Assembly: GCA_024399535.1 (NCBI GenBank)
Contig: JAKSNU010000001.1
Location: forward strand, 5,628-69,627
Direction: 5' to 3'
Source of the DNA: Paludibacteraceae bacterium
GTDB lineage: Bacteria; Bacteroidota; Bacteroidia; Bacteroidales; Paludibacteraceae
DNA length: 64,000 nucleotides
This document shows positions 1 through 3,874 of the stretch, piece after piece. The number at the start of each line of letters is the position of its first letter. Position 1 is the first letter of the stretch. The notes below the pieces were generated by a model. The model ran no database searches. It saw only the letters and a program-made list of their open reading frames with translations, and was not told the origin of the DNA. A program made the translations under genes and the position numbers.

Positions 1-2269
1 GTCTTTTGCGGAACTTGGCATTCTCGTCTTCTTTGGCTCGCTGATATTTCTCAATAGCAGCACGAACATTAGCATCGTTAAATTCGCGTGCAGTCTCGAC
101 GACAATCCTTGTGTTTTCGTCTATTATACCATCGATTAGGAGATTGTTAATCTGTCGGCGAAGTTGATGAAGCACACGCATAACCATAGGATTGCGGAAA
201 ACATTGGTGGCAGGCGAGTTCAAGAGACGGAGAGACAAGAGGTTGCCATTGTGCCATAAAGTCCTTTCCTTTGCCTTAGGGTAGATGTCAATGGCAGAGG
301 GATGATACAAGACAGTGGAAAGGTCAATGTCTTTGTATTTGTCAGAAACCATATCACCGAAATGTTCTGTGATGAAGTCAGCAATAGCATCTGTCAGTTT
401 AGGAACCTTGACCATTTTGCGTTCAGAATCAGCAAAGAAACCCTGATACAAGACGGCGACACGATCAAGCATTTTTTGTTTTTCCTCGGCAGATTTATCT
501 CGCCAGACTTTCGGTGAAAACATATCCTCGCTGAACTTTCTCACGTCTTTGCGGTCGTCATCGTCTATGATATATGAAGTGTCGTTGATAGCGAATTTCT
601 TCTCGTCAGGCAACATCCTATAGTATGTGATGACATTGTTGGCAATGCGGCTGCAAGTGTTTTCAAATGCCACATTTTCTTTGAGCACATCGTATGCGTC
701 AAGCATGGTGTCTTTGTTTCTCTCCCAATTAGCAATACCGATAATATCAGCAACCTTAGCCCAAAGGACAGCATCAGAATATATGAGTCCTTCGAAGAGA
801 AGCCTATTGATGTTGTTGATGGCTTTGAGCGAAAGGTTGGCATAGCCGTCACTTATCGCAGACCAAAGTTTAACCATGACGGTGGATTTGTCGTCGTCAA
901 GATGCTCAGCGCAGAAATCCATGATGTCCTCGGCATCATCAGCCGCAAAACAAACATGCCAAAGTTCATCATAATTATATAGTTTCACCTTGTCTTTTTC
1001 CCTTGAGGAATGACCGCCGAGTGTGGCATTTTTCCAATCATCACCCAACAACTGCTTCAGTCTATTGATTACGGGACAACCAGATACGGTTGTGTTGTTT
1101 TTGTAGTTAAGATAAAGGACTTTGCCAGTGTAGCTGAAATGGTTGATGAGGAATTTTTCGATGTCAGAGAACTTGAATGTTTTTTTTGCCCTGGTGAAAA
1201 TCCCGTCGAACAGTTCCCTCTTGACCTGCAAGTCAAGAGGACGGAAATCCTCGTTTTCGTCAAGACGATATTTGATGTTGTTGATTAAAGTCCAAGCCCT
1301 GAACTCCTCAAACTCAGGACGGCTGATAGGGCAACGACTTTTGGATGGTTCAAGAGTACATTTGCCGACAGTTCCTTTCTGTGAACGCAGAGGACGTTTG
1401 AAGAAGATTGAACCTTCGTTGCGCTTGCGGCTGAGTATCTCCAAACCAAAATCCTTGTCCACGTCTATGTCCTGACACTGGAATATAGCACGCACCTCTT
1501 CCTCATAAAGATCACGAACAGCCTGAAACTCACCATTACCCCTTACCCTTATTCCGTCACGTTCCATCATGGCGAAAGCAACACCTGCGGTTTTGCATCC
1601 GTTTTCCGTCATATAATTCTTTAGTCCAGAACTCTTTTTCTTTTCAGATTCCTTCAAAGCATCAAACATTTCGACCTCCTGAACCTCAGCATTCTTTTCA
1701 GTAGCCTCTTTCTCCATATCGTTCAAAGTCTCACCTTTGCTGCTTTTGAAGCCACGTCTCTGGGCAATATGATAGAGGGCACGCCCGAGTTTGAAGCGGT
1801 TAATCTGTTGAGAAAGGTCAAGTTTTGTTTCGGCAAGTTCAGCCCTCAGCTGATATGGAGAAGAGTAGTCTGGAATGCCGTCAAGATTGAAGTCAAGTCT
1901 TACCCACTGCTCGAATTTGTAGTTTTCGATAGGATACAGACGTTTGACAGCTTTGCTTTTGTCATAATGCCGCCACCTGTCAAGCTCATCAATGGACAAA
2001 GGACAGTAGCCATATTTAATCAAAACATCAAGAGTCCGCCATATCCTGTATCTGCGTGCTTGATTAAGCCTCCGTGAACTGCGGTGTTTGGTTCGTTCAG
2101 CAGCCAGACTTTTGATTGTACCTTTGTCCGTACGTCCTGTTCCTTCTTCAAATATCACAGAAGTAAAAAAAACAAGCTGATCTGATACTTTTCCTTCAAT
2201 GTCAGTGTCTCTTACACTTAATCCTATCGAATTGGTTCCCAAGTCGATACCTAAAACTTTACCTGCCAT
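1..2269 (-). CDS. cas9: Cas9 (type II CRISPR endonuclease), N-terminal ~756 codons; ORF continues beyond the left window edge
   Basis: Not in the ORF track because there is no in-window stop. Hand translation from the ATG at 2269..2267 (minus) gives MAGKVLGIDLGTNSIGLSV (RuvC-I motif with catalytic Asp). It also gives an Arg-rich bridge helix AAERTKHRSSRRLNQARRYRI, ALYHIAQRRGFKS, NPMVMRVLHQLRRQINNLL, and a RuvC-II-like RIVVETAREFN near codon ~735. The frame stays open to position 1. No listed minus-strand ORF shares this frame, which fits one uninterrupted open-ended ORF. Confidence 0.9.
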   Translation of the reverse strand, partial: MAGKVLGIDLGTNSIGLSVRDTDIEGKVSDQLVFFTSVIFEEGTGRTDKGTIKSLAAERTKHRSSRRLNQARRYRIWRTLDVLIKYGYCPLSIDELDRWRHYDKSKAVKRLYPIENYKFEQWVRLDFNLDGIPDYSSPYQLRAELAETKLDLSQQINRFKLGRALYHIAQRRGFKSSKGETLNDMEKEATEKNAEVQEVEMFDALKESEKKKSSGLKNYMTENGCKTAGVAFAMMERDGIRVRGNGEFQAVRDLYEEEVRAIFQCQDIDVDKDFGLEILSRKRNEGSIFFKRPLRSQKGTVGKCTLEPSKSRCPISRPEFEEFRAWTLINNIKYRLDENEDFRPLDLQVKRELFDGIFTRAKKTFKFSDIEKFLINHFSYTGKVLYLNYKNNTTVSGCPVINRLKQLLGDDWKNATLGGHSSREKDKVKLYNYDELWHVCFAADDAEDIMDFCAEHLDDDKSTVMVKLWSAISDGYANLSLKAINNINRLLFEGLIYSDAVLWAKVADIIGIANWERNKDTMLDAYDVLKENVAFENTCSRIANNVITYYRMLPDEKKFAINDTSYIIDDDDRKDVRKFSEDMFSPKVWRDKSAEEKQKMLDRVAVLYQGFFADSERKMVKVPKLTDAIADFITEHFGDMVSDKYKDIDLSTVLYHPSAIDIYPKAKERTLWHNGNLLSLRLLNSPATNVFRNPMVMRVLHQLRRQINNLLIDGIIDENTRIVVETAREFNDANVRAAIEKYQRAKEDENAKFRKR

Positions 2270-2292
2270 ATAATAATTTTTTTGTTTTTTTC

Positions 2293-2323
2293 TTTGTCAC
2301 GTCAGAAAATATTACTACCTTTG
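2293..2323 (+). promoter_or_regulatory. Bacteroidetes-type promoter for the tracrRNA candidate (-33 TTTG 2293-2296, -7 TACCTTTG 2316-2323)
   Basis: TTTG and TAnnTTTG separated by 19 nt, matching the Bacteroides sigma-A consensus spacing. No ORF lies downstream. Confidence 0.6.
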
Positions 2324-2328
2324 CACCC

Positions 2329-2421
2329 GTAAAAAGATACTAAGTGAAAGACTTTTCACAACAAGGCTATAAGCCGAAGAATCTCTAAGCTCTGCGCTCC
2401 GTGCGTGGAGCTATTTTTTTT
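2329..2421 (+). ncRNA. tracrRNA candidate (~92 nt), divergent from cas9
   Basis: Four parts in order. Putative anti-repeat at 2329-2362, GTAAAAAGATACTAAGTGAAAGACTTTTCACAAC. Nexus-like AAGGCTATAAGCC at 2363-2375 (GGCT/AGCC hairpin preceded by AA). A 10-bp terminator stem 2388-2397/2403-2412. T8 at 2414-2421. It sits 60 nt from the cas9 start codon on the opposite strand. Ends are approximate. Confidence 0.65.
2388..2421 (+). terminator. Intrinsic terminator of the tracrRNA candidate
   Basis: AGCTCTGCGC / GCGTGGAGCT stem (10 bp including 2 G:U), loop TCCGT, then A + T8. Confidence 0.7.
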
Positions 2422-2427
2422 CCGCTG

Positions 2428-2459
2428 CAAAGTTACAAACAATTATTGGTTTATACAAA
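2428..2459 (-). promoter_or_regulatory. Probable cas9 promoter (minus strand: -33 TTTG 2459-2456, -7 TAACTTTG 2435-2428)
   Basis: The reverse complement reads TTTG-(20 nt)-TAACTTTGCAGCG. The extended GTAACTTTGCAGCG is identical to the promoters at 20939 and 39546. The predicted TSS near 2421 gives a ~150-nt leader to the cas9 ATG. Confidence 0.6.
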
Positions 2460-2671
2460 TTTTCGTTCTTTAATTATGGCGAATCCGAGATAATTAAAAA
2501 TAAGTCCGATTATTTATTTTCTTCATTTCCTGACGTTCGTCAAACATTTCGATTTCTGCCCAGCATTATGTGAACCTTTGTTTCGTTCGACCATCATCCG
2601 ATAATACAAGTGCATTATCGGACGGTGAATATTCGAAAATGGGGTTCACCTAAAACGATGGTAATAGCAGA

Positions 2672-2741
2672 TTGAAAAGAGACGGAGCAGGCTCCGTCAT
2701 TACAGCCGATATGCCTTATAAAACCTAAACAAAATATTTCA
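2672..2741 (-). ncRNA. Candidate short RNA (~65-70 nt) from the orphan promoter, ending at a hairpin plus weak U-tract
   Basis: Minus-strand -7 box at 2754-2747. Hairpin GACGGAG/CTCCGTC (2681-2687/2692-2698, 4-nt loop) followed on the minus strand by TCTTTTC. No ORF longer than 16 codons. Speculative; transcription may instead read through towards cas9. Confidence 0.3.
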
Positions 2742-2746
2742 CGCTG

Positions 2747-2754
2747 CAAAGTTA
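2747..2754 (-). promoter_or_regulatory. Orphan -7 box (TAACTTTG, extended GTAACTTTGCAGCG) with no ORF downstream for ~470 nt
   Basis: Exact copy of the 14-nt extended -7 motif seen at three other promoters in this window. No clear -33 TTTG. Confidence 0.45.
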
Positions 2755-2846
2755 CACATTCACTTGCCGATATTTCCGTACAGTGATATTTTTTTTCAAA
2801 AAAAATTATTTCTACGTTTTATACTCTCATTATCAGTTTTTATTAT

Positions 2847-2854
2847 TAACTTTG
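2847..2854 (+). promoter_or_regulatory. -7 box TAACTTTG upstream of the WYL regulator gene
   Basis: TAnnTTTG motif 109 nt upstream of the ATG at 2963, and divergent from the orphan minus-strand box ~90 bp away. Confidence 0.5.
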
Positions 2855-2962
2855 CAACGTCATATTAAACTGCTGTATCGCCCCCTTTATTGATACTCAC
2901 AAAATCTTGGCAAATGGTGGCTAATAAAAGGAGTTTGATTAGTACAAAAACACAATATCGCT

Positions 2963-3874
2963 ATGAATGTAACTTTCAGGTTAGTCTGGCTCATCGACAC
3001 ACTTATGAGTCGTAAATCACTCTCGTTTGAGGAGATTTCGGACCTCTGGAGCCGAAACACATTCCTCAACAACGGTTCACGCCTGCCTCGCAGCACTTTC
3101 AGCGACTGGGTACGCGAAATACGCGACCTCTTCGGCATCAGAATAGAATACGACCGCAGCAACCTGCAAAAATACGTAATCACGAACCTCGACGAGATGC
3201 GTGACAACACTACTGCAAATTGGATTATCAACTCTATATCGGTCTGCAACACCCTCAGCCAATACAAAGATATGAAGGATCGTGTCATCATCGAAGATAT
3301 ACCATCAGGACAACCACACCTTGACACTATCATCAACGCTATGCGCGACTGCCACCCTATCCAAATCGAATACCACAACTTCAGACGCGACGACCATAAA
3401 TTGCACACTTTGCAACCGAGTTTCGTGAAGTTATTCGAACGGCGGTGGTATGTGTCCGCTTTCTCGGTTGAAAACAACGAGCAGCGTGTCTATTCGCTCG
3501 ACCGCATAAAATCAATCACCGTGCTGACCGACAGTTCGTACACCTACGACCCAAAGGTGCAATCGCACGATGCTATCTACGACCGTTGCACTGGCATATT
3601 CACCTCCGACAACAAGCCGGTGGAAATAGTTTTCCGCACATCGAAGCTTCAAGCTAAATACCTCACGAGTCTCCCTCTGCATCAGTCGCAGAAAATCGTT
3701 CGGCAGACACAAATCAAAACAACGTTTTCGATAATGGTCGCCCCTACTATCGACCTTAACCGCAAATTCCTGTCGCTCGGTGCAAATGTCGAAATAATCT
3801 CGCCTAAATGGTACCGTCAAGAGATACGCGAGGAGTGTGCTCGAATGGCAAAAATGTATAAAATATTAAGATAA
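2963..3874 (+). CDS. HTH-WYL domain transcriptional regulator
   Basis: 303 aa. The N-terminus FRLVWLIDTLMSRKSLSFEEISDLW is wHTH-like. The central ERRWYVSAFSVENNEQRVYSLDRI matches the WYL-domain signature, followed by a C-terminal extension. Confidence 0.8.
   Translation: MNVTFRLVWLIDTLMSRKSLSFEEISDLWSRNTFLNNGSRLPRSTFSDWVREIRDLFGIRIEYDRSNLQKYVITNLDEMRDNTTANWIINSISVCNTLSQYKDMKDRVIIEDIPSGQPHLDTIINAMRDCHPIQIEYHNFRRDDHKLHTLQPSFVKLFERRWYVSAFSVENNEQRVYSLDRIKSITVLTDSSYTYDPKVQSHDAIYDRCTGIFTSDNKPVEIVFRTSKLQAKYLTSLPLHQSQKIVRQTQIKTTFSIMVAPTIDLNRKFLSLGANVEIISPKWYRQEIREECARMAKMYKILR

Follow-up and report, generated by a model that had tools for sequence, protein, structure and literature searches.

The DNA analyzed here (the window; 64,000 nt, corresponding to C1:5628-69627 in a 1.63-Mb, 80%-complete assembly of 93 contigs) begins inside a cas9 gene, and an earlier note interpreted a short segment directly upstream of this gene as a tracrRNA gene and derived from it the sequence of a CRISPR repeat located outside the window. 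Is this segment indeed the tracrRNA gene of a complete CRISPR-Cas9 locus, in which direction is the corresponding array read, and could the segment instead, or in addition, serve the expression of cas9 itself? The contig extends for 5.6 kb to the left of the window and contains the array, so that the predicted repeat could be compared with the actual one.

The segment has the organization of a compact transcription unit. The predicted promoter of the Bacteroidetes type (2293-2323, plus strand), read directly from the sequence, comprises a -33 element TTTG (2293-2296), a 19-nt spacer and the -7 box TACCTTTG (2316-2323); transcription from this promoter would start near position 2329. The first portion of the presumed transcript is the 34-nt anti-repeat GTAAAAAGATACTAAGTGAAAGACTTTTCACAAC (2329-2362, plus strand), for which RNAduplex predicts pairing with nucleotides 1-34 of the repeat in its plus-strand reading. 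It is immediately followed by a nexus-like module, AAGGCTATAAGCCGAAG (2363-2379, plus strand), which consists of a 4-bp stem GGCU/AGCC with a 3-nt loop and includes the hairpin sequence AAGGCTATAAGCC (2363-2375), also directly readable, and then by a Rho-independent terminator (2388-2421, plus strand), detected by both the terminator scan and folding, with a 10-bp G+C-rich stem (2388-2412) and a T8 run (2414-2421). For the 93-nt unit, the predicted folding energy is -27.4 kcal/mol (z = -3.3 compared to shuffled sequences); the structure comprises, in this order, a small hairpin (GUGAAA/UUUCAC), a second one with the GGCU/AGCC stem, and the terminator. There is no open reading frame of at least 40 amino acids between positions 2270 and 2614. 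The promoter, the hairpin that follows the anti-repeat, the G+C-rich stem with its U8 tail and the lack of an ORF had all been part of the earlier reading, and each of these elements was recovered in our analysis. The assignment of the strand, the promoter and the terminator, as predicted, is supported by conservation of these features in relatives (see below). A search of Rfam (release 15) with positions 2000-3200 of the window yielded only noise (E-values above 2) and no matching family; the tracrRNA family to which this unit belongs appears not to be represented in that collection.

The small hairpin corresponds to an internal palindrome, GTGAAA/TTTCAC, at positions 2344-2359 within the anti-repeat. 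The earlier note had described this palindrome, which is evident, as unusual for type II guides, but it is not a peculiarity of the locus analyzed here. It arises in every case in which U9U10 of the repeat faces UU, and not AA, in the tracrRNA, and several relatives share it.

The CRISPR-Cas9 locus and its repeat

The N-terminal 756 amino acids of Cas9 are encoded at positions 2-2269 of the window (minus strand; ORF listing and profile matches), and the gene extends beyond the left edge of the window as far as C1:3571, the full-length protein having 1441 aa (ORF listing). The protein matches the NCBIfam profile TIGR01865 (1.7e-114) and the Pfam domains HNH_4, RuvC_III and Cas9_a. The earlier note had placed the remainder of the locus to the left of position 1, and this is where we found it, on the same contig: cas1 (C1:2645-3574, minus strand), which matches the type II Cas1 profile TIGR03639 (cas1_NMENI; 6e-84); cas2 (C1:2307-2648, minus strand), identified by an NCBIfam Cas2 match (1e-20); and a CRISPR array in which 13 repeats of 47 nt alternate with 12 spacers of 29-30 nt (C1:1231-2199, that is, window positions -4396 to -3428). 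Neither csn2 nor cas4 was detected in the locus, and there is no additional ORF of at least 80 amino acids from the array to the tracrRNA gene; this cas9-cas1-cas2 composition without csn2 or cas4 defines a type II-C layout. The tracrRNA gene is oriented divergently from cas9, and its start lies at a distance of 60 nt from the start codon of the latter (2269, minus strand). No RNase III gene was found in the 80%-complete assembly with the profiles TIGR02191 and PF14622, and therefore co-processing of the two RNAs cannot be assumed.

The array and its flanks display some additional features. The two cas2-proximal spacers are identical 30-mers (C1:2046-2152). In the interval C1:2211-2248 (window -3416 to -3379), approximately 39 nt past the cas2-proximal last repeat, there is an exact inverted copy, GTTGTTCTATA, of the last 11 nt of the repeat, and a 10/11 copy lies closer to the repeat; both are located directly before the cas2 terminator. 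Inverted copies with one mismatch are present in the related loci L035 (~39 nt, the same position as here) and L044 (~60 nt), and similar partial copies were noticed, by eye only, in L002 and L042. The inverted copy of the repeat end near the cas2 terminator may mark the end at which spacers are integrated.

The repeat itself, read on the plus strand, is the 47-mer GTTGTGAATTGCTTTCGAAATGAGTATCTTTGACATTATAGAACAAC, which starts with GTTGTGAATTGCTTTC and contains AGTATCTTT. The repeat predicted from the presumed anti-repeat, GTTGTGAAAAGTCTTTCACTTAGTATCTTTTTAC, turned out to be largely right: the start GTTGTGAA, the CTTTC motif and the core AGTATCTTT all match the actual sequence. Direct comparison with the array revealed extended complementarity to 2329-2362, in agreement with the proposed role of this 34-nt stretch as the anti-repeat: pairing with nucleotides 1-34 of the repeat involves 26 bp, begins at nucleotide 1 of the repeat and has a predicted energy of -26.9 kcal/mol (RNAduplex). 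In the predicted duplex, an 8-bp stem is followed by a U.U/U.U internal loop, a G-C pair, a one-base bulge on the tracrRNA side, a stem of 5-6 bp, a second internal loop, a 9-bp distal stem and two further pairs, with 8 of the 34 anti-repeat positions left unpaired. This duplex is the best site on either strand within C1:2260-8700, that is, from the array to window position ~3070. In a scan of the entire genome, 220 of 295,048 windows pair with the repeat as well or better, and therefore the duplex energy alone is not decisive; the identification of the tracrRNA derives from the comparative evidence, namely, the 33 related loci, the co-variation and the covariance model described below.

With the repeat taken in the opposite orientation, the best partner reaches only -20.5 kcal/mol and lies inside genes. 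A blastn-short search of the assembly with the repeat missed the anti-repeat because of gaps; the best match in this search, C27:18816-18844, which aligns with nucleotides 16-44 of the repeat at 26 of 29 positions and apparently lies inside a gene, is probably due to chance.

Conservation and co-variation in related loci

Homologs of the Cas9 protein were detected in 35 of the 400 sampled genomes of the same order; relatives of this Cas9 are also encoded in three GTDB genomes, those of a Paludibacteraceae MAG (89% identity), of Candidatus Minthenecus merdequi (79%) and of a Prolixibacteraceae MAG (47%). A tracrRNA-like unit is located just upstream of cas9, in the divergent orientation, in 33 distinct loci of this order. 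The conserved unit consists of a segment ending in CACAA(C/T), the motif AAGGCTATA(A/T)GCCGNAG, a hairpin and a T-run, and the nexus module is found upstream of cas9 in all 33 loci with at most three changes. These loci fall into two sub-families, one with repeats of 45-47 nt, to which the locus analyzed here belongs, and the other with 36-nt repeats and an extra small hairpin. In most loci of the 36-nt sub-family (L047, L049, L051, L052, L057, L058 and L060), the pairing orientation (GTTGTGGTTTGATGTAA...) is opposite to the tracrRNA strand, so that the array would be read in the direction of cas9, unlike the arrays of the 47-nt sub-family.

For the sub-family with the longer repeats, we constructed an alignment of 17 loci, including the one analyzed here. 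The nexus module is invariant in all 17, and a TAnnTTTG box precedes the anti-repeat on the tracrRNA strand in 15. In the terminator stem, 7 of the 9 pairs show compensatory changes on both sides. Where the anti-repeat is long, complementarity to the cognate repeat begins 4-6 nt past the box; the anti-repeat lengths implied by the position of the box range from ~12 to 36 nt across the family, the 34 nt of this locus being at the long end. The 47-nt repeat itself fits the family pattern of 45-48 nt starting with GTTGTGA(A/T)TTGCTTTC, as judged from the alignment with 15 other repeats. In two loci, L045 and L046, some of the repeat copies carry a G+C-rich insert right after GTTGTGA(A/T)TTGCTTT (e.g., ...ACTCCCTGCGGTCGTGAGATC...).

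The repeats and the tracrRNAs change in concert. Position 8 of the repeat, which is A or T, is matched by T or A, respectively, in the tracrRNA across the loci. In the present locus and in L037 and L038, the repeat has AGTATC and the tracrRNA GATACT, whereas the others combine TGTATC with GATACA. Similarly, in L002, TCTTG in the repeat faces CAAGA in the tracrRNA. In the distal module, cognate pairs match better than permuted ones, with 94 of 20,000 permutations being as good, a figure that is inflated by the relatedness of the loci and their unequal lengths.

A covariance-model search had been among the checks proposed in the earlier note. We built a model, R1, on 14 relatives; neither the present genome nor the two most closely related to it contributed to the model. 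In the whole 1.63-Mb assembly, R1 picked out a single site, at window positions 2341-2419 on the plus strand (78.1 bits, E = 7e-14; E = 3e-15 when only the window is searched). Both R1 and the direct comparison with the tracrRNA of Jejuia pallidilutea (Jpa) indicate that the unit fits the pattern of the Jpa-type family, that is, GAAAGAC-NNN-UCACAAY, AAGGCUAUAAGCCGNAG and one terminator hairpin.

Taken together, the composition of the locus, the complementarity, the conservation, the co-variation and the membership in a family that has been used biochemically form the basis on which we conclude, with a probability of about 0.92, that the plus strand of positions 2329-2421 is the tracrRNA gene belonging to a complete CRISPR-Cas9 locus of type II-C. 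The mechanism that this organization implies would be the following. The promoter TTTG-N19-TACCTTTG would start an RNA of ~93 nt near position 2329 that ends in the U-run; nucleotides 1-34 of this RNA would form a duplex with nucleotides 1-34 of every repeat in plus-strand crRNAs, which would be transcribed towards cas2, opposite to the cas operon. The invariant hairpin AAGGCUAUAAGCCGAAG together with the terminator hairpin would provide the Cas9-binding scaffold, and Cas9 loaded with the crRNA:tracrRNA duplex would cut matching DNA next to a PAM. We infer that the RNA is expressed and active in this manner, with such RNase III processing as may occur.

Direction of the array and predicted promoters at the locus

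Four points argue for transcription of the array from the plus strand. The first two are the strand of the anti-repeat and a plus-strand TAACTTTG promoter box on the left side of the array. The third is that the cas-distal terminal repeat (C1:1231-1277) lacks the 5' GTTGTG, which is replaced by ATATAA, and that the 5' end of the terminal repeat is degenerate also in three relatives (L004, L040 and L043). Finally, there is precedent: in Neisseria meningitidis and Campylobacter jejuni, the array is transcribed in the direction opposite to the cas operon (PMC3737331), and in Flavobacterium, transcription of the arrays towards the variable end from promoters embedded in the repeats has been described (PMC10309648). 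In our search for protospacers, three spacer cores had no exact match in viral contigs, and neither the array analyzed here nor that of L002 had a match in GenBank phages; therefore the crRNA direction was not independently confirmed from a PAM.

Within nucleotides 1-32, every repeat in the array carries the combination GTTG-N20-TATCTTTG, a near match to the TTTG/TAnnTTTG promoter of the Bacteroidetes; the -7 box of this combination ends 15 nt before the spacer. This combination is a candidate repeat-embedded promoter. Of the 16 related repeats, 11 have the TAnnTTTG box, among them those of loci such as L042, in which the predicted anti-repeat does not extend far enough for pairing with the box; retention of the box where the anti-repeat cannot reach it fits a promoter embedded in the repeat.

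The promoter of cas9 itself bears on the alternatives to the tracrRNA interpretation. The cas9 ATG and the -33 box of the tracrRNA promoter are only 23 nt apart, and therefore the promoter of cas9 has to be sought within the unit or on its far side. A promoter-like motif that points towards cas9 (2428-2459, minus strand) is directly readable just beyond the tracrRNA terminator: TTTG (2459-2456), a 20-nt spacer and TAACTTTG (2435-2428). A TAnnTTTG box is found in the same place and orientation in 6 of the 17 aligned loci (the present one, L002, L003, L006, L008 and L014), and this motif is the putative cas9 promoter. If it is used, the cas9 mRNA would have a leader of ~150 nt that is antisense to the whole tracrRNA gene. 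Another candidate, the minus-strand image of the TATCTTTG box of the repeat inside the anti-repeat, was considered as a cas9 promoter and dropped: the image is perfect only in L008, reads TATCTTTT in the present locus and is absent in most loci.

These arrangements open the possibility, in our estimate a rather slim one, that the tracrRNA also regulates cas9, either as an antisense RNA to the leader or through interference between the convergent promoters. The two promoter motifs face each other at a distance of ~93 nt, and the internal hairpin GUGAAAGACUUUUCAC could keep the free RNA closed; the support is purely architectural, and the minus-strand box is found in only 6 of the 17 relatives. 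Autoregulation by a long form of the tracrRNA in Streptococcus pyogenes offers a loose comparison.

Several similarities suggest, at the level of sequence, that the regulation of the locus is shared. A 43-nt block upstream of the array (C1:1161-1203) is 90.7% identical to window positions 2814-2856, upstream of a gene for a WYL-WCX protein (2963-3874, plus strand). The extended box TAACTTTGCAGCG occurs in 17 copies in the assembly, three of which are at this locus (C1:1194, plus strand; window 2435, minus strand; window 2754, minus strand), one in the array leader and two at cas9-directed sites, and the variant TAACTTTGCAACG precedes the WYL gene. That the tracrRNA, the cas9 mRNA and the array constitute a single regulon controlled by the WYL-WCX protein and tuned by antisense pairing between the tracrRNA and the leader is a still more speculative proposition, to which we would assign a low likelihood.

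It is very improbable that the segment is mainly the 5' leader and promoter of the minus-strand cas9 mRNA, conserved for the regulation of cas9, with its resemblance to a tracrRNA being secondary. The motif at 2459-2428 does point across the unit at cas9, and the cas9 promoter has to be located in or beyond the unit; however, the hairpin with the T-run is a terminator on the plus strand only, the order of the anti-repeat, the nexus and the terminator is right on that strand only, the terminator stem co-varies as an RNA helix, and 11 of the 17 loci lack the minus-strand box. Moreover, the two readings are compatible: a cas9 leader in this place would leave the tracrRNA interpretation standing. 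The least probable explanation is that the segment represents a repeat remnant that has decayed and is not transcribed, or complements the repeat by chance, and that the true tracrRNA is encoded elsewhere, for example, at ~3004-3043 on the minus strand, where 17 contiguous pairs can form with nucleotides 1-17 of the repeat (-26.7 to -28.3 kcal/mol; many genomic windows have similar energies). We rejected this candidate anti-repeat, which uses five G.U pairs, is antisense inside the WYL-WCX gene and has neither a nexus nor a terminator; R1 matches only 2341-2419, and the position, promoter and terminator of the unit are conserved in 33 loci.

Relationship to known systems

The segment is thus almost certainly an ordinary tracrRNA gene of a type II-C system, and its practical value lies in the guide RNA for this Cas9. 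The analysis yields a base-accurate annotation of a non-coding gene that is missed by protein-centered pipelines, and supplies the repeat, the anti-repeat, the bulge and the scaffold for the design of a guide RNA for an uncharacterized Cas9 of 1441 amino acids from an uncultured, gut-type member of the Bacteroidales. It further illustrates that an unseen CRISPR repeat can be predicted from a tracrRNA by a reader who has only the sequence.

The similarity to the tracrRNA of S. pyogenes (type II-A) includes the divergent orientation with respect to cas9 and the order of the elements, namely, an anti-repeat with a bulge, a nexus starting with AAGGCUA, terminal hairpin(s) and a U-run. The S. pyogenes tracrRNA differs in having two 3' hairpins, compared to one here, and the respective locus differs in the 36-nt repeat and the presence of csn2. 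Co-processing by RNase III has been demonstrated in S. pyogenes. In Neisseria, the tracrRNA gene is not known to be located divergently upstream of cas9; furthermore, the promoter type differs, and the repeat is 36 nt long. Otherwise, the type II-C locus of N. meningitidis, as summarized in two reports (PMC3737331, PMC5006608), resembles the one analyzed here in its minimal cas9-cas1-cas2 operon, in an array that is read opposite to the operon and in the promoter-like element in each repeat, to which GTTG-N20-TATCTTTG would correspond. By sequence, the closest Cas9 with a solved structure is CbCas9 (PDB 8iyq; 1442 aa, E = 1e-26), although the similarity is local only (residues 671-868); CbCas9 is a PcrIIC1-associated Cas9 according to Zhang et al. 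2024, as cited in PMC13153721, and no PcrIIC1-like gene was found among the ORFs of our locus.

Counterparts are also found among the Bacteroidetes, for which a sub-cluster with repeats of up to 48 nt has been described by Chylinski 2013 (PMC3737331). In Riemerella anatipestifer, Prevotella intermedia, Flavobacterium psychrophilum and F. columnare, the layout is tracrRNA-cas9-cas1-cas2-array, with an anti-repeat upstream of cas9, and the 47-nt repeats start with GTTGTGA and contain GTATCTTTG; repeat-embedded promoters, with transcription towards the variable end, have been proposed. Anti-repeats upstream of cas9 were predicted in the reports on Riemerella (16 nt, with a 47-nt repeat; PMC5006608), P. 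intermedia (PMC5608340) and Flavobacterium, where the tracrRNA-cas9-cas1-cas2-array order and promoters embedded in the repeats are described as well (PMC10309648). The published anti-repeats from these four species are short or partial, such as the 16 nt in Riemerella, and lack a clear promoter, whereas in the present locus, the promoter, the start, the nexus and the terminator can all be delimited.

The closest characterized relative is the Cas9 of J. pallidilutea (1459 aa, clade VIII, 46-nt repeat) from the survey of Gasiunas et al. 2020 (PMC7606464, Supplementary Data 2). The Jpa tracrRNA reads ...GAAAGACAAUUCACAACAAGGCUAUAAGCCGUAG... and carries GAAAGACAAUUCACAAC-AAGGCUAUAAGCCGUAG followed by one hairpin, and a PAM has been determined with the respective sgRNA (PMC7606464). 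The Jpa repeat starts with GUUGUGAAUUGCUUUC, its first 16 nt being identical to those of the repeat analyzed here, and the two are of nearly the same length (46 vs 47 nt), as are the Cas9 proteins; the tracrRNAs share the module GAAAGAC-NN-UUCACAAC followed by AAGGCUAUAAGCCG-N-AG, one 3' hairpin and the U-run. The differences are that our tracrRNA has UU, and that of Jpa AA, opposite U9U10 of the repeat, which creates the U.U/U.U loop and the internal palindrome; that our anti-repeat is longer (~34 nt) and also covers the AGUAUCUUU block of the repeat; and that our locus comes from an uncultured member of the Bacteroidales, whereas the Jpa host is a Flavobacteriaceae isolate. Given the Jpa guide with a determined PAM, this tracrRNA family is already known and works in vitro; accordingly, the designation of the tracrRNA as de novo in the earlier note holds for this genome but not for the family, which had been both described and used biochemically. 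The tracrRNA of the Paludibacteraceae bacterium is one more member of this family, and while no concept is changed by its addition, it joins a group for which a guide RNA has already been put to use in vitro.
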